The translations under genes and the position numbers were made by a program. A stretch of 64,000 bases of DNA from Coriobacteriia bacterium (GTDB lineage: Bacteria > Actinomycetota > Coriobacteriia > Coriobacteriales > UMGS124): assembly GCA_963930185.1 (NCBI GenBank), contig CAWVLT010000044.1:45403-109402 (forward strand), written 5' to 3'. Positions within the stretch are counted from its first letter, which is position 1, and the number at the start of each line of letters is the position of its first letter. Of the stretch, positions 2,096 to 60,765 are shown one piece after another. Below the pieces are notes generated by a model. That model was not told the origin of the DNA. It was given only the letters and a program-made list of their open reading frames with translations, and searched no databases.

Positions 2096-2171
2096 GCCCT
2101 CGTAGCTCAGGGGATAGAGCACAGGTTTCCTAAACCTGGTGCCGTAGGTTCGAATCCTACCGGGGGCACCA
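2096..2171 (+). tRNA. tRNA-Arg (anticodon CCT), encoded CCA end
   Basis: The 76-nt sequence folds by hand into a cloverleaf: acceptor GCCCTCG/CGGGGGC (one G-U pair), D stem GCTC/GAGC, anticodon stem CAGGT/ACCTG. Anticodon loop is TTCCTAA, T stem GTAGG/CCTAC, T loop TTCGAAT, 3' end ACCA. Confidence 0.95.
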
Positions 2172-2183
2172 CGCAAAAGTGCA

Positions 2184-2215
2184 GGCCAGGGGTCGAAAAG
2201 CCCCTGGCCTTTTTC
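2184..2215 (+). terminator. intrinsic terminator after tRNA-Arg
   Basis: GGCCAGGGG / CCCCTGGCC 9-bp stem with 8-nt loop, followed by TTTTT. Confidence 0.7.
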
Positions 2216-2249
2216 TTAAAGACTTTAGTCTGGCGCGCGCGTAGCCGCG

Positions 2250-2965
2250 CCGAGAAAACCACCCGCTACGCGGGTGGACGACGACCTGCTTTGAAAGCCC
2301 GCCCTCCCCCTAGAATGGCAGTTGCTCAGGCCGCCATAACCCCAGGGGAGGGTGGCTGCCAGACTATGGCACGGAAGGCGCATGGCCTGTCGCACACGAA
2401 GTGGATGTGCGAATACCACATCGTGTCCACCCCGAAGCGCGGGCAGAAGGTCATCCACAGCCAGGCCGGGAGGGATGTCGGGGAGATGCCGCGCAAGCCG
2501 TGCGAGCGCGAGGGGGTCGAGACAATGGAGGGGCGCCCGATGCCCGACCACGTCCACATGCTGGTGGCGACGCCCCCCAAGACCGGCGTGCCGGGCTTTA
2601 TGGGGTACCTGAAGGGCAAGGGCGCGCTCATGCTGTTCGACAGGCACGCGAACATGAGGTACAAGTTCGGCAACAGGAAGTTCTGGGCGGAGGGCCACTG
2701 CGTCTCCACGGCCGGGCCCGACGAGGCGGCCGTCGCCAAGTGCATACGCGAGCGGGAGGCGGCCGACATAGCCCTCGACAGGCCGGGCGTCAAGGAGTAC
2801 GAGGACCCGTTCGGGAGGTAGCCCGCCGCGGCCGCTTTGTGCGGCCCGCCACGGGTCAAGGGCGGTGCGGCCTGAGCTGGGCGAGGGCCGGCGTCTTTAG
2901 GCGCCGGCCGGCACCCCAAGGGTTACACCCTGAGAGCAAGCCACCCCTTAGAGGGGTGGTTCTGA
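2250..2965 (+). mobile_element. IS200/IS605-family (IS200-like, tnpA-only) element, probably immobile
   Basis: About 0.7 kb unit carrying a Y1-transposase ORF. It is bracketed by similar subterminal hairpins: CCACCCGC-TAC-GCGGGTGG (2259-2277) and CCACCCCT-TAG-AGGGGTGG (2941-2959). A further hairpin lies at 2886-2909. Exact ends not determined. Confidence 0.65.
2366..2821 (+). CDS. tnpA: IS200-type Y1 (HUH) transposase TnpA homolog with catalytic Tyr replaced by Cys
   Basis: LSHTKWMCEYHIV..., HUH motif PDHVHMLV, FMGYLKGKGALMLF, KFGNRKFWAEG, C-terminal DIALD..VKEYEDPF all match the IS200 TnpA pattern. The position of the nucleophilic Tyr (K-Y-I-x-E-Q in IS200-type TnpA) reads AKCIRERE. Start ATG 2366; the ORF-track start 2078 runs through the tRNA. 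Confidence 0.8.
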   Translation: MARKAHGLSHTKWMCEYHIVSTPKRGQKVIHSQAGRDVGEMPRKPCEREGVETMEGRPMPDHVHMLVATPPKTGVPGFMGYLKGKGALMLFDRHANMRYKFGNRKFWAEGHCVSTAGPDEAAVAKCIREREAADIALDRPGVKEYEDPFGR

Positions 2966-2979
2966 TTTGAGATCCATGT

Positions 2980-3885
2980 CTATTCGTTGGATCGTGTGTC
3001 TGGGGAGAATGTAGGTTGCATACACTCAAGAACGTAGTCTGCAAAGCGTCTAATTTCCTCGCCAGCTGCAGAATGAAGCACAAGATATGGATTCAGATCC
3101 ATTTGGAGTGGGATATTACAAACTGGGAGTACGCAAGAATGTTCGTCCACGTAACGGTGGAGAAGTGAGGGGATGGTCATGACGCATCCCTGGTCGTGCT
3201 TAATGAGAAGCTTTATGAGACCGCGGTCTTCGCCGACCATTTTGCGGCGGATGCCGAAACTATCTAGCAGTTTCTGGTACGGCGCAAGTCTCCCCTCTGT
3301 TTCAAGCAGCGTAATGCCATGCAAGTCATTGGAAAAATCAACTATTCCCTTTTGGGCGAGTGGATTATCGCGGTTAACAACGAGTTGCTGCTGGATTTTA
3401 CCGATCAGTATTTTTTCCAAGTAGTCTAATGAAGGGGGACAGGCTGTTATGGCAAGGTCAATTGTTCTTTGTTCAATTGCTTTCAAGAAATCTGGATAGT
3501 CTCTATTGACGACTTCCACGGGTAGGCCTTCTGGCTCTTGTCCATAACAATATATGTGGTCGAGGGTGTCTGGATCGATGGTGCCTCCCGTGATACCCAG
3601 TCGAATTGCAGTTCGACGAGTACGATATTTCGTTGCTTCGATGTCCTTGATGCAGGAGTCGTAAAGGGTGCCAAAGGCTTTGGAAAATCTATATAGGACT
3701 TCGCCTGCAGTTGTTGGGATGACCCCGGATTTGCTTCGAACCAAGAGCTCGGTGCCGAATTCCTTTTCGAGTTCGCGAATGCTTGTTGACAGACTTGGCC
3801 TCGATATAAACAGTTTGGCTGCGGCTTTGCTTATGTTCTGCTCTTCGCAGACGACCCTGAAATAGACCAGCTGGTTTAGATTCAC
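2980..3885 (-). CDS. LysR-family transcriptional regulator
   Basis: N-terminal HTH NLNQLVYFRVVCEEQNISKAAAKLFISRPSLSTSIRELEKEFGTELLVRS and LysR length. GTG 3885 preceded by GGAGGA is preferred over ATG 3903. Divergent from the SdhA-like gene. Confidence 0.85.
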   Translation of the reverse strand: MNLNQLVYFRVVCEEQNISKAAAKLFISRPSLSTSIRELEKEFGTELLVRSKSGVIPTTAGEVLYRFSKAFGTLYDSCIKDIEATKYRTRRTAIRLGITGGTIDPDTLDHIYCYGQEPEGLPVEVVNRDYPDFLKAIEQRTIDLAITACPPSLDYLEKILIGKIQQQLVVNRDNPLAQKGIVDFSNDLHGITLLETEGRLAPYQKLLDSFGIRRKMVGEDRGLIKLLIKHDQGCVMTIPSLLHRYVDEHSCVLPVCNIPLQMDLNPYLVLHSAAGEEIRRFADYVLECMQPTFSPDTRSNE

Positions 3886-3903
3886 GTGTCCTCCTCTGGG
3901 CAT

Positions 3904-3924
3904 CTGTTAGGAATCACCTAACAG
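3904..3924. promoter_or_regulatory. candidate LysR box (T-N11-A inside an 8-bp inverted repeat)
   Basis: CTGTTAGG-AATCA-CCTAACAG in the divergent LysR / SdhA-like intergenic region. A TATAAT hexamer follows at 3930-3935. Confidence 0.5.
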
Positions 3925-4031
3925 TATAGTATAATTTGGATACTTTTCTGAAAATGATCCAATGTTTAATATGATGAATGGAGAGTTGCAACTCCCGACC
4001 TTAACTGGCAACTGGATGGGGGAGGTTGGGA

Positions 4032-5831
4032 ATGAGTAAGTCACTGCCGCGTAGAGAGTTTTTGCAGGGAACGACGATGGGCCTTGTGGGCACATCTCTG
4101 CTGGGAGGCACTGCTCGTGCTGTAGCAGATGAGGCTGCGAGTGCGACTCCTGACCAGGTTGATGCTGCTCCGGACTACGAGATCTATAATACGGAGCTCT
4201 TGATTATCGGAACGGGCAGTGGGGCAACATGGGCCGCACAGCGCGCGCTCGAACGCGGCAAGCAGGTCCTCATGGTGGAAAAGGGCCCATTCCGTCATGC
4301 TGGCGCATCGGGTATGAGCTGGGATGCTTGGATGCTCTGGTGGGATTATGCGGGGATACGCAACGATGGCTGGATGCTGATTGATGAGCAAATTCCCCTT
4401 GCAGCATGGACGTACCTCGGGGGTAATGACTTCAACCCATGGGTTTCCTCGATAAATCATGGTCAAACGCTGCCGTGGCGAGATGAGAATGGCTTTCCCA
4501 AGCCAGAGTCCGATGCTCTTCCTTGGAGTGTCTGCTCGGCATTCTATCGCCGTGAGATGGACGCGCTGCTAGCCATGGGCCATGCCGAAGTCATGGACCA
4601 GACCATGATCACTGATCTGCTTATCAACGACGGACGCTGCCTGGGGGCCGTTGGCATATATCTGCCAACCGGCAAGATGCGTGTCATACGCGCCGACGCA
4701 ACAATAATGGCCGCGGGCGGCGGAACTCAATTTCATGGTTGGCTCACGATCGGGTACCGTGGCATCAATTCAACCGATAACACTGGCGATCTCGATATGG
4801 CGGCATTCCGTAAGGGATTTACCATAGGCGAGGCAGAATTTGCTCAATATGACTTTAATTCGATAGTCTACGAGGATATTGCACATACGTTTGGCTGTGG
4901 AATTGGAGCCGACGCTGGCGAGCTCGAGATTCTCTATGACGCGAACTACGAGCGCATCTTTGCCGATGACGAAGAGGTAAACGGTAACCTTGGCATGAGT
5001 CAGAGAATTGGACGTCTGGTGTTTGAGGAAGGCAAGGGAACGCCGCACGATGGCGTTTATGTCCACTACAACGAGGATTCGTTCAATAGCGTGCGCTATC
5101 CTATTATGCGCAACGTCGCGTTTTTCCAGGAACATGGGTATGACCCGATAGGTAAGTATACTGAAGTGGCTGCCGAAATGTACGAGCATGGTGGCTCGCC
5201 TGTTGTTGATGTTAACATGATGACGGAGTGCGAGGGATTATTCAACGAGCGTGGAGCGGGTGCCTGCGGAGAAAACGGAGGCCCACACTGCATGCACAAT
5301 CGCTTGTATGGGAGCTATACGGGTGAATGTGCTTCGAACTACCTAGACACGGCGGCTCCTGTCTCACTCGAGGATATTGACTGGGCAAGCGTGCTCGCAG
5401 AGTACAACCGCCTGCATGAAATTCGTACGCGTGTTGTTGAGAATGGACTGCGACCCCATGAAATCCGCCGCAAGATACAGGCGGCAGGGTATCGTGGCTT
5501 TACCATTTATCGTTCGACCGAAATGATGGAAGAAGCTATTGCTGAGCTCGAGCGCATTCGCAAGGAGGATATGCCGCGGCAGGTTCTTGCGGATAGTTCC
5601 ACAACGTTCAATGTCGAGTGGAAGACGGCAATCGAGAACTATAACCTTCTTGATTGCGCGGAGGTGAGCATCAAGGCCTCCCTATTGCGTGAGGAGACTC
5701 GCGGGGCTTATCTGAGGCCGGAATTCCCTGAGCGCGACGACGAAAACTGGAATTGCATGCTTGCCTGTCATCTCGAGGGTGACGAGATGGTCTTCGAAAA
5801 ACGCCCGTATCCGCCGTTGGTGACACAGTAG
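4032..5831 (+). CDS. Tat-signal SdhA/FrdA-like FAD flavoprotein subunit
   Basis: Leader MSKSLPRREFLQGTTMGLVGTSLLGGTARAVA; FAD fold LLIIGTGSGATWAAQRALERG; His in KGPFRHAGASGMSW aligning with the covalent-FAD His region. C-terminal EETRGAYLRPEFPERDDENW is typical of the SdhA/FrdA/NadB family. ATG 4032 has a GGGGGAGG RBS. Confidence 0.85.
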   Translation: MSKSLPRREFLQGTTMGLVGTSLLGGTARAVADEAASATPDQVDAAPDYEIYNTELLIIGTGSGATWAAQRALERGKQVLMVEKGPFRHAGASGMSWDAWMLWWDYAGIRNDGWMLIDEQIPLAAWTYLGGNDFNPWVSSINHGQTLPWRDENGFPKPESDALPWSVCSAFYRREMDALLAMGHAEVMDQTMITDLLINDGRCLGAVGIYLPTGKMRVIRADATIMAAGGGTQFHGWLTIGYRGINSTDNTGDLDMAAFRKGFTIGEAEFAQYDFNSIVYEDIAHTFGCGIGADAGELEILYDANYERIFADDEEVNGNLGMSQRIGRLVFEEGKGTPHDGVYVHYNEDSFNSVRYPIMRNVAFFQEHGYDPIGKYTEVAAEMYEHGGSPVVDVNMMTECEGLFNERGAGACGENGGPHCMHNRLYGSYTGECASNYLDTAAPVSLEDIDWASVLAEYNRLHEIRTRVVENGLRPHEIRRKIQAAGYRGFTIYRSTEMMEEAIAELERIRKEDMPRQVLADSSTTFNVEWKTAIENYNLLDCAEVSIKASLLREETRGAYLRPEFPERDDENWNCMLACHLEGDEMVFEKRPYPPLVTQ

Positions 5832-5881
5832 GCTGGCATTTTGGCTACAAGACAGGTGTGTTGTGGGAGACAGGAGTGAAA

Positions 5882-6592
5882 ATGCTTCTAACCGTATATA
5901 AGTTTGATCCCGCTGTTGATGTCGAGCCCTATTATGTGCAAGGCGAAGTTCCTTTCCAGGAACATATGACCGGTCTCCATGCGTTGATGTATTTTGATGA
6001 GAATGTCGAGCACGTAAACTATGATCATAGTTGTCGCGCTCGTGCGTGTGGTCGTTGCGCCATGATGCTCAACGGGGAGCCAACTCTCATGTGCACGCAC
6101 TTTCTTGAAGACAAGGACTATACCATCGAACCGTTGAGGGGTTTTCGAGTCATTCGAGACCTCATTGTTGACAAGAGCCCGCTTGATGCACAGCTTACGG
6201 GAGTTTACAATCGTGTTCGCGTCGAACCATTCGATGCTCAGACTATTGCCGTCGATATGTCGGATTATGACAACGACACCATGATGTTGCTCTATGGCTT
6301 GGAGTATTGCTGCCGCTGCGGAGTGTGCGATGCGGCCTGCCCGGTACTTGCGGAGATGCCCGAAGAATATGCTGGCCCTGCAACAATGCTCGCTTTGGCG
6401 TATCGTCACCTTGATCCTCTTGATTCGGGCGATCGGGTTATGGAGGCAGTAGGCAAGGGGCTCTATCATTGTATTCAGTGTGGAAAATGCGATGAAGTTT
6501 GCGCCAGTAGTGACATCAGGCATCTTGATGCTTGGAAGATCCTACGAGCTGCGGCGGAGGAACGCGGCTTGAGGCCGAGCTATGCGGAGTGA
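5882..6592 (+). CDS. SdhB/FrdB-like iron-sulfur subunit (no signal peptide)
   Basis: 2Fe-2S-type motif CRARACGRCAMMLNGEPTLMC plus two CxxCxxCxxxC motifs (CCRCGVCDAACP, CIQCGKCDEVCA). ATG 5882 has a GGAG RBS, 50 nt after the flavoprotein gene. Confidence 0.85.
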   Translation: MLLTVYKFDPAVDVEPYYVQGEVPFQEHMTGLHALMYFDENVEHVNYDHSCRARACGRCAMMLNGEPTLMCTHFLEDKDYTIEPLRGFRVIRDLIVDKSPLDAQLTGVYNRVRVEPFDAQTIAVDMSDYDNDTMMLLYGLEYCCRCGVCDAACPVLAEMPEEYAGPATMLALAYRHLDPLDSGDRVMEAVGKGLYHCIQCGKCDEVCASSDIRHLDAWKILRAAAEERGLRPSYAE

Positions 6593-6627
6593 CGTTTCGA
6601 CTTAGCCGGAAAACGGGGAGGGGCCGC

Positions 6628-6662
6628 GGAAGGGGTCGCAGGAGTCTGCTCTCGACCCTTCC
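6628..6662 (+). terminator. probable terminator hairpin after the SdhB-like gene
   Basis: GGAAGGGGTCG ... CGACCCTTCC stem (one bulge), followed by a T-rich stretch. Confidence 0.45.
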
Positions 6663-7483
6663 CCCTGGTAATTTTGGTTTGGTGCGTGTAAGCATCGAGA
6701 GGCCGTTGGTTTGTCAGATGGATGTGTCATCTGGTCTTACGGCTTGTTCTCCATCCAGAATGCCAGTTGTCTGGTCTGCCGCATCGGGAGAAGAGCGCCT
6801 TACAAATTGCGTCACGAAAGACACCTGGCCCATCACATACGGTGGGACGTACAGATGCCACATCGCATACGTCCCAAAGTAGGGTCACTAGGCAAAGCGG
6901 AATCGCTGGGTCATCTACAGCCTGATCAGTTGACATGTGGTAGCGCGGCCGCTCGGTTGCGGCCCAGAAGATAGGCAGCGGGAGCGGTGCTTGTCGCGTT
7001 GGTTACCTCGTGGAGAGCGCCCGCTGCCCGGGTGTACAGACTTATATCGGTGTCAACACTGATGTCAAGGTTGAGGGCTTTGTGGCCGACGGCGGCGGTG
7101 TTGTGTGCGGTATCACAGGCCTGCACATCTCCAATATTGAGCCCATCAGCGCTGCCATCAAGCTGATGGTCACGACAATCGGCGGGTATGCCTCCTGCAA
7201 TTGGGTTCGCCATGCAAGGCGCCGCGGCTACCCAGGAGTAGACCGACAGAGAGGCATGGCTCACCGCAAACTTCGTTGACATCACCGAGGACCATCTCGA
7301 TGAAATCGCCAATTTTGAGCGCGTTGCTCTTGAGCGCGAGATGGGGCCTGTTCAAAAGGGGACTACAGCACTATCCTTACTCTGGCCAGAAAGGCCAACC
7401 CGGCCTGCCGTGATATCGTACGTGTCGCGCGGTGCCAGGCGCGTTTGGATATCGACGTTTTGCTTACCAGAAGAAGGGGAGCC

Positions 7484-8551
7484 ATGAAAACCATCGCATC
7501 TCGTCCCATCGCCGCTTTCGTCGCCTCGGTTGCGCTTGCCGGAACCTGTCTGGCCGCACCTGGCCTGGCCCTGGCCGACGAGCCTGCCGCGGCGCCGCTG
7601 CCGTCCGCCTCGGCTTCTGCCGACCAAACCGCAGGTGTCACTTGCACTTGCGCTGGTGTCCAGATCACCGTCCCCGAGGACTTCGACGTCGTCGAGCTCG
7701 GCAGCATGCTGCTTGCTAGTAACGCTGACGGGACCATCGTCGCGACCATAGTCCCCTCGGGCGCCGAGGATGCCGTGCCGGCCGCGCCGGAGGAGTGGGG
7801 TGCGTACTTCCTCCCCATTGTCGAGTCTACCGCCGAGGACATGGGTGGCGAGTATGCGGACGGCGGCGTGTACACGCTGGCCGACGGAACCAAGTCGTAT
7901 GTCTACTCGATTGCCTACGAACAGGACGGCATCCAGGCCATTCTTGTCCAGTGCTTCATCCCCATGGCCGATGGTTCGTTCGTCATGGTTCAGATTGCCT
8001 GCGATTCTAGCGATGCCGCCCTCGTGGAGCTTGCCGATGACATTTCTGAGACCATCGTCCTGGCGAGCGACGATACCGTCCCGTCAAGCGACGACACCTC
8101 GACGGCCGCCTCTGCTGCTGGTGACATCCAGGTGGTGCAGGCTGGCGGCATCGAGTTCGACCTGCCCGCGGGCTATGTTCCCGACGCCAGCTCGACCGAG
8201 GCGGAGCCTGCCTGGACGAGCGCTGATGGGACGGTCTACGTGAGCCTGATGCCCGGCCTGCTTGACGAGTATTCGACCGTGGGCGACGAGGCTTTGGATC
8301 TGCTCGCGACGATGGTTGTCAGCGGGCTCGGCGGCTCTGCCGAGAGCTCGACCGTGCTTTCTGGTGACGTCGACGTCCACGCGTACGTGTTCACCTTCTC
8401 GATGGAGGGCGAGGCGGTCGCCGGCATCCTGGGCATGGTGGTTCTCCCCGACGACACGGTGACGGGTGTGCTGGCCTTGACCCCCATGGAGAACGCTCCC
8501 GAAAATGACGCCGAGGTGACCGCTCTGTTCGAGAGCATCCGCCTGGCGTAG
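7484..8551 (+). CDS. secreted acidic protein of unknown function
   Basis: Sec-type leader MKTIASRPIAAFVASVALAGTCLAAPGLALA followed by DEP. The Asp/Glu/Ala-rich body appears to consist of two similar halves. RBS GAAGGGGA before ATG 7484. Confidence 0.6.
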   Translation: MKTIASRPIAAFVASVALAGTCLAAPGLALADEPAAAPLPSASASADQTAGVTCTCAGVQITVPEDFDVVELGSMLLASNADGTIVATIVPSGAEDAVPAAPEEWGAYFLPIVESTAEDMGGEYADGGVYTLADGTKSYVYSIAYEQDGIQAILVQCFIPMADGSFVMVQIACDSSDAALVELADDISETIVLASDDTVPSSDDTSTAASAAGDIQVVQAGGIEFDLPAGYVPDASSTEAEPAWTSADGTVYVSLMPGLLDEYSTVGDEALDLLATMVVSGLGGSAESSTVLSGDVDVHAYVFTFSMEGEAVAGILGMVVLPDDTVTGVLALTPMENAPENDAEVTALFESIRLA

Positions 8552-8858
8552 CCGATCAAGAGCCCAACTCGCTCGCGGGACGTCCTTGATGGGGGCGTCT
8601 AGGCCGGACACTGCGTTGGACTGACGTGCGATTGGCGACGAGAGCACGGCTGTAAGCTTACGGAGCACGGGGCCGTTCGGGATTATCCGGGCGGTCCCTT
8701 CTCATTGCAGGGTGAGCCTACGCATCCTGATCGGGTGGCACGCGGGACGTTGGGCCCTTTGGCCGGAAGACCCTGGTTGAGCGCCGCGCCTGGCGCTATT
8801 CTTATGCTGGTCTTATAAAAAGAATCGGATGGGGCCGAGGCAACACGGGGGCTGACGC

Positions 8859-9143
8859 ATGAAGGCAACGCGGGCGCTGCGCATGATGGTAAAGAACAGT
8901 GGGCTGACCGCCATCGAGATCTCTCGCAGGATCGGTCGCACGGACAACTACCTGTCTTCTCTGCTGAACAGGGGCAGCGTTCCCTCGGTGGAGACGTTTG
9001 CCAGCATAGCCGAGGCATGCGGCTGCAGGCTCTGCCTTGTCATGCCCGAGCAGACGGTTCAGTTGGACGGCTGGGAGGTCGAGCTTACGACCGATGTCAT
9101 GATTGACGGGGAGAAGCCGGGGCGCCAGATGGGCCGAGGGTAG
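8859..9143 (+). CDS. XRE/Cro-CI-type helix-turn-helix protein
   Basis: SGLTAIEISRRIGRTDNYLSSLLNRGSVPSVETFASIAEACGCRL matches the HTH_3 pattern. Confidence 0.65.
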   Translation: MKATRALRMMVKNSGLTAIEISRRIGRTDNYLSSLLNRGSVPSVETFASIAEACGCRLCLVMPEQTVQLDGWEVELTTDVMIDGEKPGRQMGRG

Positions 9144-9237
9144 CGGCCGACTGCTTCTCCAATGCGCCTACTATGGCGATGGGGCCACCGGCGAGGGGGC
9201 TTGATGACGCCTCTCATATATTGTTGATGTCAGACTC

Positions 9238-9266
9238 TTGACAGGCATTCTAAAGAGGAATATAAA
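9238..9266 (+). promoter_or_regulatory. sigma-70-like promoter upstream of the RNA ligase gene
   Basis: TTGACA (9238-9243), 17-nt spacer, TATAAA (9261-9266). Confidence 0.5.
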
Positions 9267-9384
9267 CTCATCAATACATGAGTCTTAGCAATATCCAACA
9301 AGCGGCATGGCTCTCAGGCTTGGGCTCTGTCTGCCTTGTTGGGCGAGGTGAAGTCTGCGTTGTTCTGGCTGGCGGGCACTCGAC

Positions 9385-10437
9385 ATGAAAGGATGGGCGG
9401 TCGTGGGGAGGAAACTGGCGTCGGTTCAATACGTGCACGATGTGTGGCCAATCGAGGGTGCGGACTCCATTGAAGCCATAGGCGTCCTAGGCTGGACGTG
9501 CGTTGCAAAGAAAGGCGAGTTTGCGGTGGGGGACAGCTGCGTCTATTTCGAGATAGACTCGTTTCTCCCAATTGACGATCATTTCGAGTTCCTCCGCGCA
9601 AGCAGCTATAAGAATAGCGAGCTGTTGGGCGAGGGTTTTCGCCTCAAGACCCAGAAGTTCCGCGGGCAGATCTCCCAAGGGCTGGCGCTGCCCTTGAGTA
9701 TTCTCCCAGAGGGGAATTATGTGCTTGGCCAGGACGTGACCGAGCTTTTGGGCGTTCGCAAGTGGGAGATAGCTGAGTTCGCGAGCAGCAACGGAACGAT
9801 CATCGGGGGCCTTCCGGTGGGCCTGCCAAAGACGGAGGAATCGCGTGTGCAGGCAGAGCCCGGTTTGATCGACGAGTTTGTCGGCGTGCCCTATTACATC
9901 ACAACCAAAATGGATGGCACAAGCGTCAGCATGTTTCTAATTGACGGACGCTTTGGGGTGTGCGGTCATAATTACGAGTACGCCGATGACGGCAGGTGCT
10001 CATTTTGGGATTATGCGCGAAAGCATGACATAGAGAGCAAGATGCGCGATCTTGGCATTGGCGATGTCGTTGTGCAGGGCGAGTTCTGTGCCGCCGGCAT
10101 TCAAAAGAACCCGCTGAAGCTTACCAGGCCCGAATGGTATATATTCACCGTCTATGACCCACTTACTCGCAAGCATTTCTCCCTGGACAGAATGACAAGA
10201 CTTTGCGACAGACTTTGCCTGCAGGTTGTTCCCGTTGAAGAGCGGGGTGACGACCTGCCCTACAAGGACATAACGGCGCTGCTCGAGAGGGCTCGTGGTA
10301 ACTACCCAAGCGGAACGACGAAGGAGGGGATCGTGATCAGGCCGCTTGTTCCTGTGTACTCAAAGACGCTGGGCGGGCCTTTGTCTATGAAAGTGATCAA
10401 TAACGACTATCTGCTCAAGAAGGCAAAGCGCGAATAG
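9385..10437 (+). CDS. ATP-dependent RNA ligase, Rnl5 / DraRnl (DRB0094) family
   Basis: N-terminal OB-like module RKLASVQYVHDVWPIEGADSIEAIGVLGWTCVAKKGEFAVGDSCVYFEIDSFLP. Nucleotidyltransferase motifs: I TKMDGTS, III VVVQGEF, IV KEGIVIRP, V LSMKVINNDYLLK. The start could instead be GTG 9403. Confidence 0.75.
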   Translation: MKGWAVVGRKLASVQYVHDVWPIEGADSIEAIGVLGWTCVAKKGEFAVGDSCVYFEIDSFLPIDDHFEFLRASSYKNSELLGEGFRLKTQKFRGQISQGLALPLSILPEGNYVLGQDVTELLGVRKWEIAEFASSNGTIIGGLPVGLPKTEESRVQAEPGLIDEFVGVPYYITTKMDGTSVSMFLIDGRFGVCGHNYEYADDGRCSFWDYARKHDIESKMRDLGIGDVVVQGEFCAAGIQKNPLKLTRPEWYIFTVYDPLTRKHFSLDRMTRLCDRLCLQVVPVEERGDDLPYKDITALLERARGNYPSGTTKEGIVIRPLVPVYSKTLGGPLSMKVINNDYLLKKAKRE

Positions 10438-10757
10438 GTACGTCCAGGTCGAGAAGGCTGCGCATAAGCTCGGCAAACTCGGCTCGAGTTTATGCGCAGC
10501 TCAATTGGCGTGCGGTTGTCGTACATTAGATGGCCGAGATGCGGCATCAAAGGGCCAGTGGCAGTTGGCCCAGGATTGCCGCGCCTATGTTGATGCGGGC
10601 TTTGACGCCCATCATACTTTGCTTGTGTGGCTGTCCCTGTGTCCTCGGTCCTCTGCTCATATACATAAGGTGCTGAGCTTTGTATTAGCAGCATAGAGCA
10701 AAATGCTAATACATAGCTTAGTAGTAATGTATGGCGGCAGGAAATACTGTGAGTGGC

Positions 10758-11027
10758 ATGAAGACTGACGTGCCACATGACTACTCGCGCTTTCTCAGCC
10801 AGCTGGGACTGAGGATCCAGCAGCTGCGCAAATCAAGAAAGATATCCCAAGAGCAGCTTGGCGAGCTCATAGGCGTGAGCCGCGTCTATGTCGGCTACAT
10901 CGAGCAGTCAAGGGAGATCCCGAACCTTGAGCTGCTCTATAACATCGCAGCGGTGCTTGGTGTCGGACTGGATGAGTTGTTCGTCGGCATCGAGATTGGT
11001 GCTCCAACGAGAAGCAGAAACGCATGA
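10758..11027 (+). CDS. XRE-family HTH regulator (tandem paralog 1)
   Basis: ISQEQLGELIGVSRVYVGYIEQSREIPNLELLYNIAAVLGV. Start 10758 chosen because it aligns with the paralog start at 11133. Confidence 0.75.
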   Translation: MKTDVPHDYSRFLSQLGLRIQQLRKSRKISQEQLGELIGVSRVYVGYIEQSREIPNLELLYNIAAVLGVGLDELFVGIEIGAPTRSRNA

Positions 11028-11081
11028 CCACCGTGGTTTTTGAAGGCCGACATCTGACGTGCCTCGGCAGCGTGATAAATG

Positions 11082-11096
11082 CTAACTGACAGTTAG
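11082..11096. promoter_or_regulatory. 15-bp perfect palindrome, candidate XRE operator
   Basis: CTAACTG-A-CAGTTAG lies 37 nt upstream of ATG 11133. A degenerate copy (CTAATACATAGCTTAG, 10706-10721) occupies the same position upstream of the first paralog. Confidence 0.5.
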
Positions 11097-11132
11097 TAGT
11101 AAGTTCGCCTATGGGAACATAGGGTGTCCGGC

Positions 11133-11369
11133 ATGGAAACTAGGACGCCCGATGACTACATGCGCTTTGTTGAGGACCTTGGCGCAAATATCAGTCGCCT
11201 TCGCAGGGAGAAGGGCTTATCCCAAGAGGAGCTTTGCGAGCTCATTGGCATAAGCAGGGTTCACATGGGCTATATCGAGCAGGCGAGAAGGACGCCGAGC
11301 CTCGAGATTCTCTACGACATCGCTCGAGCGCTTGGCGTAGGCGTGGGAGAGCTCTTTCCTGCACGCTAA
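11133..11369 (+). CDS. XRE-family HTH regulator (tandem paralog 2)
   Basis: LSQEELCELIGISRVHMGYIEQARRTPSLEILYDIARALGV. Colinear similarity with 10758-11027, including the upstream DNA. Confidence 0.75.
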   Translation: METRTPDDYMRFVEDLGANISRLRREKGLSQEELCELIGISRVHMGYIEQARRTPSLEILYDIARALGVGVGELFPAR

Positions 11370-11406
11370 TCGACCTGATTTGTGTTTGCGACCTAGTGAC
11401 GTGCTT

Positions 11407-11655
11407 ATGCGGGGTGCCTGTCAACCTCGGATACTCGCGGTCGAGGTCGAGGAGGTTGCGCGTAAGCTTGGACCGGGCCGCTCGGAGTTCATGCGGGGCG
11501 CTATTGACGATCGGCTTGCCGCAGGTAGGGTAAATCCGGTAACGGTGCATGCTCATTTTGCTGTCAATCTGGACAAATCTCGACACACGGCAAAGCGATG
11601 TCGAGATTTGTCCAGATTAAACGCTATTGGAATTGGCGCAGGCGAGCCACTCTGA
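11407..11655 (+). CDS. possible small ribbon-helix-helix (CopG-like) protein
   Basis: Only the segment RILAVEVEEVARKLGPGRSEFMRGAIDDRL resembles an RHH. The 3' part of the ORF runs through a hairpin repeat. Weak call. Confidence 0.25.
   Translation: MRGACQPRILAVEVEEVARKLGPGRSEFMRGAIDDRLAAGRVNPVTVHAHFAVNLDKSRHTAKRCRDLSRLNAIGIGAGEPL
11566..11627 (+). repeat. hairpin repeat, copy A (20-bp perfect arms)
   Basis: AATCTGGACAAATCTCGACA - 13 nt - TGTCGAGATTTGTCCAGATT - AAACGCTAT. A second copy lies at 24541-24604 in the same orientation. Confidence 0.85.
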
Positions 11656-11785
11656 CGTGAGTGTAAGATCATCGGTTCGCCTGCGCCTTTGGTGTCTGAT
11701 CGCTGCAAGGTCAATTCAAGAGTTCGTTAGCAAGTGGGTGGGATTGATCCCCCAAGCTGGCTTTCTTTATACAGACGATCGACTT

Positions 11786-13519
11786 CTAGTCCGCCGCGAT
11801 TCCGTCGGCGCCCATGTCTCCGGTTTCGTCAGCTGTCTGGATGGTAGTCGCCTCAGGCATAACAGACTCGATAACGATACCTTCGTTTTCGATATAGGTG
11901 GCTGCATTATTGGCCGCTGCACGTCCGCTCCAGAAGGCGAAGGCGCTTGCCCAACCGGAATCAAGATGGTTGTAATCGCAGCCATAGCATCCGCCTGCGT
12001 CGTTGCCGATGACGTAAAGTCCAGGAATAGTCATCATTTCGGCGTTAACGGCCTCTAGCTTTTCGGTGACCTTGACACCACCGGTGGTATTGAGAATGCC
12101 GCAGATCATCTTGCACATATAAAACGGAGGCGTCTGCACCTTATGCATGTTGTTGACATCCTTATGGAACCACCAGTCGACGCCTTCGTCCACAGCGGCG
12201 TTGTACTCTTTAACCGTTGCGACCAGTTTTGCAGCATCAATTCCTGCGGCCTCCGCCAAGCCTTCGATGGTGTCAGCACGAATGATATTGCCTGATTCCA
12301 CGGCAGCATCGAGAGCGGCCGAAAGACCCTCAATAGGATCGTTATGGGAGGGCGTATAGACGGTTGTCTTGATGGTGGGGTTGTTTTCCATCATCTCAAC
12401 CATGTCGGAGTCGAAGAGTGAATAGTACATACCATCAGGCTGGTAGATGATCTTGTAATTCGATTCATTGGAGAACCGATCGGCGAGCTTGTTGACATAG
12501 AGATAGGGTTCACGTGCTGCACGATGTACAGGGCTGTCAATGACCTCTCCCTCTACCTGTTCGATAGTGCAGTCGTAGAAACGGATACCTTCCTCTGCGG
12601 CCCCTGCAGCCCAGGCCATACGGATACCTTCGCCATAATGGCCACCCATGCCGCCAGCAACCTTGTGACCTTGGGTTCCGCAGGCGAGCGCTTCATTGTG
12701 CCCGCAGTATTTCTCGAGCATCTCGGGACTGTTGGCAAATCCGCCAGTTGCAATGATGACAGCTCCGGCGCTTACTTTGACTACATTACCGTCCTTATCT
12801 GTGCATGCAACGCCGATGACGCGTCCGGAGTCATCTTGAATGAGATTGTTTGCATGCGTTTCGAGCAAGAACCGAGCGTTGTCAAATTCCTCGGCTTTGG
12901 CAACGAGCTTGTTGGCGAGGTGAATTCCACCCTTAGCATAGTTGCCATTGGCATCTTGATTCAGGAACATGATGCCTGCCGAGCCGCCGGGACCGCGAAG
13001 GCCCCACATGACACCGCCATCCGCGATGGTGCATCCTACATCATCGACAAGCCAGTCGATTGATGTGGCGCATTCTTCGGTGAACATGCGAACGAGCCTC
13101 GCATTGGCGCGCCAGCGGTTGAAGTCCATGTGATACGTGTAGGCATCAAGCGGGCTCTGAATCTCGTCACTCATCCCTGCTTCCTGCGTTGCCTTGCAGT
13201 CAAGCGTGTAGTGCGCCTCGACTCCGTAAAGGCCACCGCCGAGATAGCCAAAGTTTTCGACACCAATTACGTTAAGGCCATTTTCTGCCGCCTGCACGAT
13301 CGCGCACATACCGGCACCTCCGGTGCCGATTACAACAACGTCACATGCATATTCGGTTGCATTTTCTGTATCAAGGGGAATGATCTCCAAGCTCTCACCA
13401 GCTGTTTCTTCGGCAAAGGCGGGAGAGACGGCGAGCGACGCGCCCTTCAGTGTGCCAGCAGCTATGGCTGTTGATGCTGCCCCTACGACGAAACCTCTTC
13501 TCGAGACAAGCTCACCCAT
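11786..13519 (-). CDS. Tat-signal FAD-dependent reductase (FAD_binding_2; fumarate/urocanate-reductase-like)
   Basis: Leader MGELVSRRGFVVGAASTAIAAGTLKGASLAVSPAFA; DVVVIGTGGAGMCA dinucleotide fold; C-terminal IPGLYVIGNDAGG. RBS AAAGGAG. Confidence 0.85.
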   Translation of the reverse strand: MGELVSRRGFVVGAASTAIAAGTLKGASLAVSPAFAEETAGESLEIIPLDTENATEYACDVVVIGTGGAGMCAIVQAAENGLNVIGVENFGYLGGGLYGVEAHYTLDCKATQEAGMSDEIQSPLDAYTYHMDFNRWRANARLVRMFTEECATSIDWLVDDVGCTIADGGVMWGLRGPGGSAGIMFLNQDANGNYAKGGIHLANKLVAKAEEFDNARFLLETHANNLIQDDSGRVIGVACTDKDGNVVKVSAGAVIIATGGFANSPEMLEKYCGHNEALACGTQGHKVAGGMGGHYGEGIRMAWAAGAAEEGIRFYDCTIEQVEGEVIDSPVHRAAREPYLYVNKLADRFSNESNYKIIYQPDGMYYSLFDSDMVEMMENNPTIKTTVYTPSHNDPIEGLSAALDAAVESGNIIRADTIEGLAEAAGIDAAKLVATVKEYNAAVDEGVDWWFHKDVNNMHKVQTPPFYMCKMICGILNTTGGVKVTEKLEAVNAEMMTIPGLYVIGNDAGGCYGCDYNHLDSGWASAFAFWSGRAAANNAATYIENEGIVIESVMPEATTIQTADETGDMGADGIAAD

Positions 13520-13658: not shown

Positions 13659-15896
13659 CTATAGCGCGCGTCCTACATCGTTGCCGCCGCGGATAGCAAG
13701 CGCGATGTTGAACGGCTCGTTACAGTCTCCGATGGCATACTTCTCTGCGATGTCGATCTCATCCAAGAGCCCTGCGTTGGGCAGCGGATCGGCAGCATTG
13801 ATAATGCTATCGCAGGCGATCTGCGCATCCACGCCATAGCCAGAACGAATAGTGATGCCACCTTCTTCAATAGAGATGATCTCAGAGCTCGGCCATACCT
13901 TGAGGCCAAGCGAGTAGAGGGAAGTAAGCATGAAGCGCCGGGCATGCTGGGACTGTTGGAGATCAAGATCTTCGTTGGCACTCGGGGTTACCATGATGAC
14001 CTTCTTGCCGTGCACCATGAGCCACAGAGTTGCGTCAAAGGCCTGGGCGTTCGAACCGTATACCACCACCGTGTTTCCGGTGTCATCACCCATGAACGCC
14101 TCGTATGGCAGGATCGGAACGCCTTCTCCTTGGATCTCGAGCACTGCCGGTTGAGATCCAACTGCCAGAACAACGGCATCGGGTGCGGCGCTAGCGATGG
14201 TATCCGCAGTGACCTCGGTGTCGAGAATGACCTCAACTCCGTTGATCTCAAGCTGCCGAGAAAGATAGGCAACCAGGTCATCCAGATTCTCGTGTGGGCC
14301 CTTGACCGCGTTTGCGGTCGGCAGCTTGCCGCCGAGCATGCCTGTCTTTTCGTATAGGGTAACTTTGTGACCGCGTGCGGCGGCGATACGTGCTGCCTCC
14401 ATGCCTGCAGGGCCACCGCCAATGACCATGACATTCTTTGGATCACTGGACAGAGGAGGAAGCTCGTAGGTCGCAGGGCCATTTTCGGTCATGACGCGCT
14501 GGGTCAGGGCGTTGACGCGACAGTAACCCATCTCGCGGTTTGCCTCGTTGCTGCCAATATGACAGTGCAGGCAACGACAGCATGGGGCGATTTCATCAAG
14601 GCGGCCCTCGCGTAGCTTGTTGACATATTCAGTGTCAACGGTAAGCGGACGGGTCATGGTGTAGTAGTCGACTTTGCCCTCTTCGAGTGCGTTCTCGAAG
14701 AAGTCGGGGGCATGGGCGGGATCCATGTACGTGACCGTGCCGATGGGGATACTGACGACCTCCTTGAACTTTTTGGTCACATCGAGCAGCATACCGGCGC
14801 CCTGGTGGGCTCCATCGAGCAGGCCTTGGAAGTGACGGTCGAAGTTGTACTGATAGCCCCAAGGGTTCATCCCCTCGAGACCTTTGAGGATGAAGTAGAG
14901 ATCGCTGCCAAATTGGGTGGGGTGATAGTCCTTGATTCCCAAGCGGATGCACAGGGCATCCATTCCGGCGGCCTCAAAGGCCTGGGCGAATGCCAGTTCT
15001 TCCTCAAAGGTCGTTTGCTGGTTATAGGGAAGGTTGACCTCAATGTCGAGCGCACTGAATGCCTCGCCTATGTTGTTGGTCAGGTTGTCGTTGTCGACGA
15101 TGCCCTCCATCAGCGCTTCGATAATGAAGTCGTCGCCGCAGGCTTCCTTAATTTTCTGAACGGTTTCCACAACTATGCGGGCACGATTCTCGATGCTCTG
15201 CGGGCCGTAATCGTCAGTGCGGTGGTTATAGTAGCGTGACAAGAACTGAGTGCAGAGGGTGTTGCCGGTCATATGGAAGCCGATCCCTTTGAATCCCATC
15301 TCTTTGAACCACTGGCAGTATTCCACGGCCCCCTGCTGGAAAACCTCAATGTCTTCGACGGTCATTTCATCACAGGGCTTCACGGGCAGCGGTACAAATT
15401 GCACACCATAGTAGGTTCCATACTGGGCACTCTCTTCGGCGAGGGCCTTTCCCCATGCCATGACTTCATCGCCGGTTACCCCATTGGGTCGTTCGGCGGT
15501 TGGCGACGGGCTGAGCCAGTCAATATATTCCATCATGATGAACTCAACTCCGCCCTTAGCGAAGTTGAGGTAGTACTGATACATCTCATCAGTCGGGCCA
15601 TTGAGGTAGGTTGCCGATCCAGCTGCCGATTTCATAATGCGGTTGCTCAACTCAAGAGGGCCGAACTTCAGAGACGAGAAGAGGGTGGTGAGCTCCTTGG
15701 TATTGGAGCGCCAGTCGGATTCATCTTGTGGGTTTACATATGCCTGTGGAATAAGCCCTTCGACGAGCGTTGCGGAAACACCATCGGTCGCCACGGGAGC
15801 CTCCTCGGCATATGCTGGCAGTGTTGCAGCAAAAGCAACCCCTGCTCCGGTGGCGCCCGCTACTTTAATTGCGTCTCTGCGGGTAATGCTTTCCAT
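13659..15896 (-). CDS. Tat-signal Old-Yellow-Enzyme / enoate-reductase (2,4-dienoyl-CoA-reductase-like) flavo-iron-sulfur protein
   Basis: Leader MESITRRDAIKVAGATGAGVAFAATLPAYA; OYE barrel start LELSNRIMKSAAGS; Cys cluster CCRCLHCHIGSNEANREMGYC; VIGGGPAGMEAARIAAARGHKVTLYEK FAD fold. RBS GGAGAGGAG. Confidence 0.85.
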   Translation of the reverse strand: MESITRRDAIKVAGATGAGVAFAATLPAYAEEAPVATDGVSATLVEGLIPQAYVNPQDESDWRSNTKELTTLFSSLKFGPLELSNRIMKSAAGSATYLNGPTDEMYQYYLNFAKGGVEFIMMEYIDWLSPSPTAERPNGVTGDEVMAWGKALAEESAQYGTYYGVQFVPLPVKPCDEMTVEDIEVFQQGAVEYCQWFKEMGFKGIGFHMTGNTLCTQFLSRYYNHRTDDYGPQSIENRARIVVETVQKIKEACGDDFIIEALMEGIVDNDNLTNNIGEAFSALDIEVNLPYNQQTTFEEELAFAQAFEAAGMDALCIRLGIKDYHPTQFGSDLYFILKGLEGMNPWGYQYNFDRHFQGLLDGAHQGAGMLLDVTKKFKEVVSIPIGTVTYMDPAHAPDFFENALEEGKVDYYTMTRPLTVDTEYVNKLREGRLDEIAPCCRCLHCHIGSNEANREMGYCRVNALTQRVMTENGPATYELPPLSSDPKNVMVIGGGPAGMEAARIAAARGHKVTLYEKTGMLGGKLPTANAVKGPHENLDDLVAYLSRQLEINGVEVILDTEVTADTIASAAPDAVVLAVGSQPAVLEIQGEGVPILPYEAFMGDDTGNTVVVYGSNAQAFDATLWLMVHGKKVIMVTPSANEDLDLQQSQHARRFMLTSLYSLGLKVWPSSEIISIEEGGITIRSGYGVDAQIACDSIINAADPLPNAGLLDEIDIAEKYAIGDCNEPFNIALAIRGGNDVGRAL

Positions 15897-29264: not shown

Positions 29265-29600
29265 TGCTGCGTTCCTTTCTCGAACTTTCGGTGCGGCGGA
29301 CTGGGGCTCGCCCACCTTGTCCATGGCACGTGCCGGGCGCGAGCGCAACCCACGCGGTTTCGGGCGTCGGCACGGTGCCACTTGTCGATGACTACGCTAT
29401 CCGACCAGGCCGCGATGCGCTATCGACCGAAATTATCCGAGTGCCCGTCACGGGAAAACGGGGTCGACAATTATGGTCGATGGGGTGCCCTGACGAGCGG
29501 AAAAGCGCTAAGCTATGGTCATGCGTCGTCACGATTTGAACGAAAGCTGCCGCGGCGACGAGCACGAGGGGTTGTGGCTGGCGAGGCAGGGAGGACGGCT

Positions 29601-43007: not shown

Positions 43008-43353
43008 GGCAATCCTCCTTTGTGTGCGTATGGGTGCGCACGTTGGGTGCATGCATGGCCGTGTGCCTGCACGCTGGTTATCAAGGTAGTGCTGCCTCGC
43101 TTTGCTGGCTTCTCGCAAGTTGGGGTGGTTGACGGAAAACGGCTACCCCAGATTGGGGCAGTCGTGCAAAATCGCAGGTCAAAGACATCAAGTTGCCTGC
43201 CGCGCCTGTGATTTGATCTGTGTCTGCGTGCGTATAAGACGAGGTAGGATACAGCACGCTGGTTTTCTTGTCGGCATTGCTCACACCCGCAATTCGCTGC
43301 TCGCGCGCGGGGAGAAGCCAAGAAGGCACGTTCGCTCATAGGAGGAGGTTCCC

Positions 43354-60565: not shown

Positions 60566-60765
60566 TATCTGTCGCGAATTCAGACCTATTTCGCGATGTT
60601 GCTAAATGGTCGGGGCTTATAAATGCGGGAGAGGCGTGCTTGCGTCTCTTCCGCATATGTTTAACACGGGTGACAGGGTGTCTCGCCGTTCTTCATATTG
60701 CGATTGACGTGATCGTGCTTACAGCAATAGCATGTACCCCAAAGGGATTTGGGGAGGGGATTGTC

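Follow-up and report, generated by a model that had tools for sequence, protein, structure and literature searches.

Flavoproteins of the SdhA/FrdA type are known from complex II (SdhABCD, FrdABCD and type E SdhABEF), which has membrane subunits and faces the cytoplasm, and from fumarate reductases of other architecture. The thiol:fumarate reductase TfrAB of methanogens is a cytoplasmic enzyme of two subunits without an integral membrane anchor, in which the CCG/Hdr-like C-terminal half of TfrB takes electrons from coenzyme M (CoM-SH) and coenzyme B (CoB-SH). The 8-methylmenaquinol:fumarate reductase MfrABE of Campylobacter jejuni and Wolinella succinogenes faces outward; it has a twin-arginine translocation (Tat) leader on the SdhA-like subunit, a leaderless, co-exported SdhB-like subunit, and a third subunit, MfrE, with a CCG domain. 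Here, we describe a gene pair, A and B, that encodes a flavoprotein and an Fe-S subunit related to these enzymes and is predicted to be exported, with no gene for a membrane subunit beside it. The pair lies in a 64,000-nucleotide stretch (positions 45,403 to 109,402 of contig CAWVLT010000044.1, assembly GCA_963930185.1) from an uncultured, gut-type Coriobacteriia bacterium of the order Coriobacteriales, called the window below; coordinates are those of the window unless a contig is named. A first-pass annotation of the window had named MfrABE as the described outward-facing relative of the pair and had pointed to its MfrE subunit, in agreement with a report that restricts Mfr to a few Epsilonproteobacteria (PMC4148689).

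All parts that had been assigned to positions 2980 to 6592 were recovered in place by open reading frame (ORF) listing, tRNA search and profile searches. Gene A (plus strand, ATG at 4032, to 5831) encodes a protein of 599 amino acids that matched the Pfam domains Succ_DH_flav_C (4e-23) and, partially, FAD_binding_2 (2e-12). Gene B (plus strand, ATG at 5882, to 6592) encodes 236 amino acids that matched Fer2_3 (3e-25) and Fer4_8 (9e-11). The coordinates and domains thus agree with the earlier description of an SdhA-like protein with an RR leader, a leaderless SdhB-like partner and a divergent LysR-type regulator. The C-terminal SdhA/FrdA block noted at first pass is present in A as EETRGAYLRPEFPERDDENW, and it corresponds to the ETRGxH/Y..R..FPxRDDxNW block of complex II. 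The observation itself is confirmed and its core interpretation holds; taken as a whole, that interpretation is partly supported.

A scored below every curated cut-off in NCBIfam and was accepted by no curated family. Its best model was TfrA, with 129 bits against a cut-off of 718 (NF004900), and the remaining models (Sdh, Frd, Mfr, NadB and AprA) gave lower scores. B gave its best equivalog-level score with TfrB, 150 bits against a cut-off of 385 (NF004898), and cleared only the generic subfamily model TIGR00384 (dhsB; 135 bits against 88), no equivalog. The AlphaFold2 model of A, built on 35 relatives, had a predicted local distance difference test score (pLDDT) of 81 and a predicted template modeling score (pTM) of 0.85. 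It showed the four-domain flavoprotein fold of complex II, with FrdA of Escherichia coli as the top Foldseek match (template modeling score [TM] 0.77, 20% identity), and hhalign aligned the A family with classical SdhA/FrdA at a probability of 100%. A therefore combines the SdhA fold with the FAD_binding_2 and Succ_DH_flav_C domains of a complex II flavoprotein. The scores far below the cut-offs, together with the fold and the domains, place the AB pair within the SdhAB/FrdAB superfamily, as a true member that branches off deeply.

The catalytic residues of A were mapped in four ways: by phmmer against the Protein Data Bank (PDB), by the family profile against the PDB, by MAFFT, and by profile-profile alignment with hhalign against ten classical SdhA/FrdA sequences. 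SdhA and FrdA of E. coli served as numbering references. All four methods agreed that H232, R287, H355 and R390 of FrdA, the dicarboxylate residues of functional succinate:quinone and quinol:fumarate reductases, are replaced or deleted. The position of FrdA H232 (SdhA H242) is held by Asp or by Val/Tyr, within a loop that is five residues longer. FrdA R287 (SdhA R286), the proton donor, is Asn in the clade of the window, and the equivalent Arg is kept as 'DR' in 21 of the 35 aligned sequences, which are the more distant members. FrdA H355 (SdhA H354) is absent from the family, where an invariant Met precedes YEHGG, and FrdA R390 (SdhA R399) is replaced by His or falls in a gap. FrdA E245 (SdhA E255) is also lost, being Gly by MAFFT and Phe by hhalign. 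The methods disagreed at T244 (T254 in SdhA), which was Ile by MAFFT and Thr by hhalign. An F-R-H His, a candidate for covalent attachment of flavin adenine dinucleotide (FAD), was found in 27 of the 35 members and aligned one position before SdhA H45 (FrdA H44), the site of the 8-alpha-N3-histidyl FAD of complex II, beside a one-residue gap. Judged from these replacements, binding or reduction of fumarate by A in the canonical way would be very unlikely. The first-pass annotation had called the substrate unknown and had tied this to the state of the C4-dicarboxylate site; as these residues are not conserved by any of the four alignment methods, it was right.

B contains one C-x4-C-x2-C-x11-C motif and two C-x2-C-x2-C-x3-C motifs, which matches the one 2Fe-2S-type and two CxxCxxCxxxC motifs reported at first pass. 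It spans the SdhB core only and has neither a signal peptide nor a CCG extension; an N-terminal extension was found in none of the 59 family members compared. The 11 canonical cluster-ligand Cys residues of complex II are all invariant in these 59 sequences. A twelfth Cys (C200 in the window) is likewise present in 59 of 59 and aligns with V207 of E. coli FrdB and I209 of E. coli SdhB. FrdB V207 is the site where the exchange V207C turns the 3Fe-4S cluster into a 4Fe-4S cluster. TfrB, MfrB and the type E SdhB of archaea naturally have a Cys at this position. Because the fourth Cys is found in all 59 B subunits, the third cluster of B is predicted to be 4Fe-4S rather than 3Fe-4S. The quinone-site residues W164 and H207 of SdhB are not kept in B, and their absence leads us to read the distal cluster as a solvent-exposed 4Fe-4S cluster that may form a protein docking site. 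In the residues lost from both subunits and in the additional Cys, AB differs from complex II, from which it also differs in lacking a membrane subunit and in its predicted export.

No gene for SdhC/D, FrdC/D, SdhE/F or a CCG subunit follows B, as the first-pass annotation had observed; none adjoins the pair in the window or in the roughly 70 related loci, and the CxxCCG motif was absent from all six frames of the 64-kb window. The 850 nucleotides past the hairpin that follows B contained no credible ORF and no gene remnant (ORFs of at least 30 amino acids in 6550-7480), and neighbor proteins of the related loci gave no tblastn match in 6500-7500 of the window. A hidden or decayed third subunit after B is therefore ruled out by the ORF, tblastn and CxxCCG scans. 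In 57 loci, the 1.5 kb downstream of B were scanned for ORFs with a hydrophobic segment; no membrane ORF recurred among the loci, and TatA-like ORFs were seen in about five. B is located directly 3' of A in nearly all of the roughly 70 loci where the contig allows this to be judged. Since B follows A without a recurrent membrane neighbor, the two-gene unit is a conserved structural operon. It had been suggested that the anchor might have been lost only here; an adjacent membrane subunit was found in none of the Coriobacteriia, Firmicutes, Chloroflexota, Deltaproteobacteria or Spirochaetia loci, and the absence of an anchor gene characterizes the family as a whole and does not stem from a loss at this locus.

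The family is rare. About 105 clusters of full-length A relatives (33 to 99% identity) were obtained from 5.8 billion proteins, and an exhaustive search of 1.84 billion representatives returned only 91 matches with E <= 1e-30, of which about 45 belong to the clade of the window proper. A scan with one genome per species found 69 loci. Most of them are from Eggerthellaceae and other Coriobacteriales (Raoultibacter, Paraeggerthella, Gordonibacter, Adlercreutzia and Slackia exigua); the remainder are from Lachnospiraceae, Desulfitobacterium, Peptococcaceae, Anaerolineae, Desulfobacterales, Desulfomonilia, Geobacter and one spirochaete. The best genome match of A, at 84% identity, was in another Coriobacteriales metagenome-assembled genome (MAG). 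For the housekeeping phospho-sugar mutase of the host, the best named relatives reached 65 to 70% identity and came from a Coriobacteriales MAG and from Atopobiaceae. The closest relatives outside the Coriobacteriia are from Lachnospiraceae, with 67% identity for A and 77% for B. As far as their sequences allow a prediction, the clade is thus rare but phylogenetically wide and would consist of exported SdhAB-type dimers with a remodeled active site and no protein anchor.

For about 65 loci, the ORFs up to 4.5 kb away from AB were clustered all against all. The neighbors were a TetR-like regulator in 21 loci, a LysR regulator in 10, other Tat flavoproteins in 10, a transmembrane LuxR-type regulator in 8, a sigma-54 activator in 8 and tatA in 3, with MarR and two-component regulators in single loci. 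A conserved neighbor acting as the anchor was ruled out, as the recurrent neighbors are regulators, other reductases and tatA. In several Desulfobacterales loci, AB lies among short-chain dehydrogenases and an aldehyde:ferredoxin-oxidoreductase-like gene. A contig from a Pseudomonadota MAG (L050, 6295-11801) holds two tandem A genes with a short-chain dehydrogenase between them and one B after the second.

These results bear on the possibility that AB is an outward-facing fumarate, mesaconate or crotonate reductase of the Mfr type whose MfrE subunit has been lost or relocated. The two systems share the superfamily fold, the Tat leader on the flavoprotein, the passenger Fe-S subunit and the four-Cys third cluster of Mfr, Tfr and type E enzymes; the outward-facing position and the co-export of the leaderless subunit are predicted for AB. 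The R287-equivalent Arg, kept as 'DR', is also found in most distant members of the family, and Mfr is reported to accept mesaconate and crotonate (PMC4148689). However, A reached 61.8 bits with the model MFR_Fp_SdhA (NF042982, cut-off 1100) and B reached 61.2 bits with MFR_FeS_SdhB (NF042952, cut-off 600), about 5 to 10% of the equivalog cut-offs and less than the TfrA, TfrB and generic Sdh scores. Moreover, Mfr has a functional fumarate site, whereas H232, H355 and R390 are replaced throughout the AB family and R287 in the clade of the window, and a gene for the CCG subunit was found in none of the roughly 70 loci. We consider an Mfr-type enzyme improbable.

The leader of A (residues 1-32; 4032-4127, plus strand) reads MSKSLPRREFLQG...ARAVA|DE. 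It contains the Tat motif LPRREFLQG, a short hydrophobic (h-) region and a signal-peptidase I site (ARA/AVA) before DE, and a lipobox Cys is absent. With TIGR01409, the generic model for Tat signals, the leader reached 14.4 bits, below the cut-off of 16.7, so that support for export comes mainly from conservation in the family. R7, R8 and F10 of the R-R-x-F motif were invariant in the alignment of 35 sequences, and the RR pair was kept in 157 of 161 nonredundant relatives. Several A homologs matched the Pfam family TAT_signal, and tatA adjoins AB in Desulfitobacterium, Geobacter and other loci. A lipobox Cys was found at the end of the h-region in at least 89 of the 161 relatives and in about 100 by eye (about 60%), and most family members are therefore predicted to be Tat-dependent lipoproteins. 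In A and its closest Coriobacteriia relatives, the leader instead ends in AxA followed by acidic residues, and the leaders of at least eight other Tat-leader proteins of the window end in the same way. Export of AB is thus well supported by inference. Co-export of B with A would correspond to the standard Tat hitchhiker arrangement, which is an accepted route for the Fe-S partner of Mfr and has precedent in other Tat enzymes (PMC4148689). In most relatives, the dimer would be kept at the membrane surface by a lipid attached to A. The term 'anchor-less' used at first pass is accurate in that no anchor gene is present; for the relatives predicted to be lipoproteins, it means the lack of a protein anchor, and a lipid anchor is possible.

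The alternative that the leader is nonfunctional and that AB is a cytoplasmic dimer, like TfrAB or the adenylylsulfate reductase AprAB, draws on the resemblance to TfrAB. The TfrA and TfrB models gave the top curated scores for both subunits, and both enzymes have two subunits, no integral membrane anchor and a four-Cys third cluster. The subthreshold leader score and the lack of a visible tether after cleavage would also fit a cytoplasmic location. In contrast, about 160 sequences, with identities as low as 33%, keep R-R-x-F, mostly with a lipobox at the right distance, and tatA is adjacent in several loci. B matches positions 4 to 221 of the 488-position TfrB profile and ends after the SdhB core, so that the CCG/Hdr-like half with which TfrB takes up its electrons is absent, and it is SdhB-like rather than an AprB-type ferredoxin. 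Tfr is cytoplasmic and has fumarate as its substrate, and A has a Tat leader. A cytoplasmic AB dimer is therefore, in our view, very improbable.

The pair, described by itself at first pass, is not a singular oddity. Another A/B pair lies in the window, as do at least eight Tat-leader flavoproteins besides A, each paired with a regulator. The second flavoprotein, A2 (57905 or 57923 to 59782, plus strand; Succ_DH_flav_C 3e-25), is SdhA-like with a Tat leader (VPRRTFIQG...GLADE). It is followed by an SdhB-like subunit, B2 (59831-60565, plus strand), with the same 12-Cys pattern as B. A2 shares 28% identity with A (BLASTP 9e-48) and B2 shares 37% with B; all NCBIfam scores of A2 were under the cut-offs. 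A transmembrane LuxR-type regulator is divergent from the pair (55969-57459, minus strand; C-terminal GerE 4e-12, multi-span hydrophobic N-terminal part), and a second LysR-type regulator lies 3' of B2 (60763-61686, plus strand, start approximate within the ORF 60424-61686; HTH_1 2e-15, LysR_substrate 1e-14). The A2/B2 family comprises about 64 clusters of its own, and in its clade 40 of 54 flavoproteins are predicted Tat lipoproteins by their lipobox. Relatives in Raoultibacter phocaeensis and Adlercreutzia agrestimuris show A followed by B with regulators alongside. As with AB, no anchor gene was found beside A2/B2.

In total, the window encodes at least nine FAD_binding_2 proteins, including those at 11786-13519, 19578-20936, 21138-22838, 27441-29381, 41244-43118, 50427-52088 and 54243-55841. 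Most have Tat leaders, with RR leaders ending in AxA-D/E-E, and they are interleaved with nine LuxR-type (GerE) transmembrane regulators that have long hydrophobic N-terminal parts. An anchor gene was found beside none of the Tat-leader flavoproteins. The missing electron path, which the first-pass annotation had noted for AB, is therefore a general feature of the reductase arsenal of this organism. Arsenals of substrate-induced respiratory reductases, each with a regulator, have been described in Eggerthellaceae (bioRxiv 10.1101/2022.12.26.521950), and the window likewise holds many genes for PF00890 proteins with a signal peptide beside a regulator. AB resembles the exported flavin reductases with a single subunit that are known from Eggerthellaceae and Shewanella (UrdA, Cgr2, and the cinnamate and itaconate reductases; PF00890, Little et al.) in that a flavoprotein with a Tat or other signal peptide is encoded beside a dedicated regulator, in genomes that hold tens of such genes. 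By analogy, AB probably shares with them the role of a substrate-induced terminal reductase. They differ in belonging to the flavocytochrome c/UrdA branch, without Succ_DH_flav_C, and in receiving electrons through flavin mononucleotide (FMN)-binding or heme domains or partners, whereas A belongs to the SdhA branch proper, and its module for electron entry is a subunit of its own, SdhB-like and with three clusters.

The arsenal also bears on the direction of catalysis. AB could be an exported dehydrogenase that oxidizes an extracellular organic substrate, with B delivering the electrons to menaquinone or an acceptor protein. SdhAB modules are in principle reversible, type E succinate dehydrogenases also have a four-Cys third cluster, and the genes around AB in Desulfobacterales look catabolic. 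The context in the host, an array of exported reductases with sensors and regulators, is instead the pattern of respiratory acceptor use, and nearly all family members come from strict anaerobes whose respiration uses organic or inorganic acceptors. A dehydrogenase is therefore unlikely in our judgment.

The regulator divergent from A (minus strand) extends over 2980-3885 from a GTG (301 amino acids) or, as an ORF, to an ATG at 3903 (307 amino acids), and it contains an N-terminal HTH_1 domain (2e-19) and LysR_substrate (6e-8). The start at GTG 3885 is the more likely one, because AGGAGG precedes it, the gene calls in contigs L007 and L080 are of 301 amino acids, and the orthologous contig L007, from a near-identical strain, has no ATG at 3903. 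The first-pass annotation had marked 3904-3924 as a candidate LysR box. This site is a perfect 8+8 inverted repeat, CTGTTAGG-N5-CCTAACAG, that contains T-N11-A and lies in the shared intergenic region, 19 to 39 nucleotides upstream of the start of LysR; its distance to A, which lies downstream, is about 110 nucleotides. A TATAAT sequence (3931-3936) stands directly past it. In L007, the arms are identical and the spacer differs. The 84%-identical ortholog (contig L009) has CTGTCAGG-N4-CCTGACAG, with paired changes that preserve the dyad, and the Lachnospiraceae locus L004 has CTGTTA-N8-TAACAG at the corresponding site. Its retention with compensatory changes across three lineages gives good comparative support to the palindrome as a candidate LysR operator.

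The reading that we favor, with moderate confidence, is that AB is a substrate-induced, extracytoplasmic reductase for an acceptor that is not a dicarboxylate. AB would form a soluble flavoprotein/Fe-S heterodimer; its subunits are homologs of SdhAB/FrdAB, the hydrophilic half of complex II. The dimer would be assembled and loaded with cofactors in the cytoplasm and then exported in folded form on the leader of A, with B as the passenger, so as to act at the outer face of the cytoplasmic membrane of its monoderm host. The divergent LysR regulator would control AB through the 3904-3924 palindrome in response to a small molecule. Electrons would enter at the surface-exposed third cluster of B, with its four Cys, and pass through the 4Fe-4S and 2Fe-2S clusters to the FAD of A, where an organic acceptor would be reduced. 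An acceptor other than fumarate is proposed because the site of A lacks the two His and two Arg residues that bind and protonate C4-dicarboxylates.

The donor would most likely be encoded outside the locus, as a menaquinol-oxidizing membrane protein or a small redox carrier that is shared with the other exported reductases. A shared donor elsewhere is suggested by the lack of a local donor for AB and for the other exported reductases of the window. Multiheme cytochromes c (three to five CxxCH motifs) were found beside AB only in Geobacter, two Deltaproteobacteria MAGs and one Coriobacteriaceae MAG (L006, 10796-13187; L030, 9564-11293; L032, about 3300-4810; L013, 2188-2733). In Geobacter, five- and four-heme proteins follow a signal-peptide protein; the Deltaproteobacteria MAGs have a 100-amino-acid triheme protein and the Coriobacteriaceae MAG a five-heme lipoprotein. 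As a lead only, these cytochromes are candidate donors in the relatives that encode them. Either the lipid anchor, predicted in about 60%, or the neighboring cytochromes c appear to solve the problem of electron supply in relatives. The cytochrome loci of Proteobacteria also hold a signal-peptide protein of about 450 amino acids, which could be an outer-membrane channel and a possible route of substrate entry.

Several points weigh against the reading of AB as an exported reductase. The locus encodes no donor, and no cytochrome c gene was found in the 64 kb. The leader scores below the generic Tat cut-off, and since A lacks a lipobox, no tether for the cleaved dimer is visible in a monoderm host. 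The residue for covalent FAD attachment is ambiguous in the alignments. A four-Cys third cluster occurs also in archaeal succinate dehydrogenases, so this cluster leaves the catalytic direction unfixed. The codon usage of the module is foreign, and expression of AB in the host is not guaranteed. Finally, export, activity, catalytic direction and cluster type are all predictions from sequence.

More tentatively, the AB and A2/B2 clades may form a new architectural class within the complex II superfamily. Its members would be extracytoplasmic and without a protein anchor, tethered to the membrane through a lipid at the N-terminus of the flavoprotein or docked to a shared donor. Their all-4Fe-4S distal cluster would be fed by menaquinol at the surface of the membrane or by a promiscuous quinol dehydrogenase or cytochrome, and the remodeled active site would reduce, as a respiratory acceptor, a dietary or host metabolite that is not a dicarboxylate. 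Full-text literature searches found no publication describing the AB family, and genome and proteome papers on Desulfitobacterium give only counts of 'fumarate reductase paralogues'. The fold, the Fe-S wire, Tat hitchhiking and the ecological role all have precedent. What we did not find described is the combination of these features: a unit of two subunits, either a lipid anchor or no anchor, four Cys at the distal cluster, and a site that is not of the dicarboxylate type.

Gut Coriobacteriia and other anaerobes use large sets of exported reductases to turn dietary, host and drug molecules into respiratory acceptors. AB offers a clean test case, in which a structurally well-understood, SdhB-like three-cluster wire is present without its usual feeding partner. 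Its relatives provide three natural variants: a lipid anchor, a neighboring multiheme cytochrome, or neither. Identification of the donor would help to explain how soluble, exported reductases are connected with the quinone pool in monoderm bacteria, and identification of the substrate would add a new reaction to SdhA/FrdA-fold chemistry. The conserved candidate LysR operator is a direct handle for an induction screen.

The composition of the module differs from that of the host. Its G+C fraction is 0.48 to 0.54, and the G+C fraction at third codon positions (GC3) is 0.49 in the LysR gene, 0.58 in A and 0.52 in B, against 0.79 to 0.92 in host core genes; this gap indicates that the module is compositionally foreign. 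The first-pass annotation had proposed a low-G+C insert. The lower G+C and GC3 stood, but the atypical DNA is not bounded by 2980-6592, as the low-GC3 tract extends over about 3 to 26 kb, broken by one host-like gene at 7.4 to 8.5 kb, and low GC3 occurs again at 54 to 64 kb. A tRNA-Arg gene (anticodon CCT; 2096-2171, plus strand) was identified by ARAGORN and Rfam RF00005 (67 bits), with a perfect 10-bp hairpin 3' of it (2183-2210) in an inverted-repeat search. No second copy of the tRNA-Arg 3' end and no att repeat was found in the window, and no integrase among the flanking ORFs. A genomic island at the tRNA-Arg gene was therefore rejected, leaving only the atypical composition.

An IS200-like element (about 2218-2968, plus strand) lies between the tRNA gene and the module, with its ends set by alignment to a Collinsella IS200. 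The homology reaches 2968 and stops there, so the right end of about 2965 given earlier was correct. Its tnpA gene (2366-2821, plus strand) matched Pfam Y1_Tnp (2e-23) and the NCBIfam IS200 model (98.8 bits). The Y1 profile match and the HVH motif are kept, while PKYRRK is changed to PKRGQK and EGYYVST to EGHCVST. EGYYVST is presumably the motif that carries the catalytic Tyr of the IS200 transposase. Both of its Tyr residues, present in the Collinsella, Streptococcus and L007 copies, are lost in the window, so that the catalytic Tyr of the IS200/IS605 group is missing from this copy.

The location and composition of the module raise the possibility that AB is a recently and horizontally acquired, nonfunctional passenger beside a decaying IS200. 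The codon usage is foreign, the module adjoins a tRNA gene and an IS200 copy without the Tyr of its catalytic motif, and strains that are otherwise near-identical differ by 2% in the LysR-A segment. On the other side, the LysR, A and B ORFs are intact, and the family-invariant residues and all 12 Cys are kept. The operator arms are retained between strains despite the change in the spacer, and the exact B protein was found on nine contigs from several samples. We regard a nonfunctional passenger as highly improbable.

Compared with the near-identical L007 strain, the divergence was 2 to 6% from the tRNA spacer through LysR and A (2096-5831) and 1% in B; over the next 7 kb (6593-13519), it was 0.1 to 0.5%. 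The IS200 region (2096-2979) differed by 43 substitutions, all of them transitions, of which 36 were A/T in L007 and G/C in the window. In tnpA, 29 of 456 nucleotides differed (6.4%). The divergence pattern suggests that the IS200-LysR-A segment is a recombination tract or has a separate history.

A terminator-like GC-rich hairpin with a U-rich tail (6612-6680, plus strand) is located directly 3' of B, as weak evidence for a terminator. Its folding energy of -38 kcal/mol was not better than that of shuffled sequence (z = -0.4), and a consensus terminator scan did not call it; an intrinsic terminator after B was therefore rejected. The host-like gene within the low-GC3 tract (7445-8551, plus strand; GC3 0.79) encodes a secreted protein of 355 to 368 amino acids, rich in Asp, Ala and Ser, with no family match in Pfam or NCBIfam. 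Further along the tract, three small XRE/HTH genes (8859-9143, 10731-11027 and 11124-11369) flank the gene for an RNA ligase (9385-10437) that has an OB domain of the PHA02142 type. The region 8859-11369 may be a phage- or defense-related remnant.

Proteins of other types in the window also carry leaders of the RR type. The minus-strand gene at 13659-15896 encodes a 745-amino-acid protein of the Old Yellow Enzyme type with a twin-arginine leader, MESITRRDAIKVAG...AYAEE. It contains Oxidored_FMN and Pyr_redox_2 domains, as in 2,4-dienoyl-CoA or enoate reductases, an architecture that is usually cytoplasmic. The plus-strand gene at 43354-44952 encodes a serpin (Pfam Serpin, 1e-51) with an RR-type leader, TRRGFAGAALGG...ALADE, which would be an exported bacterial inhibitor of serine proteases.

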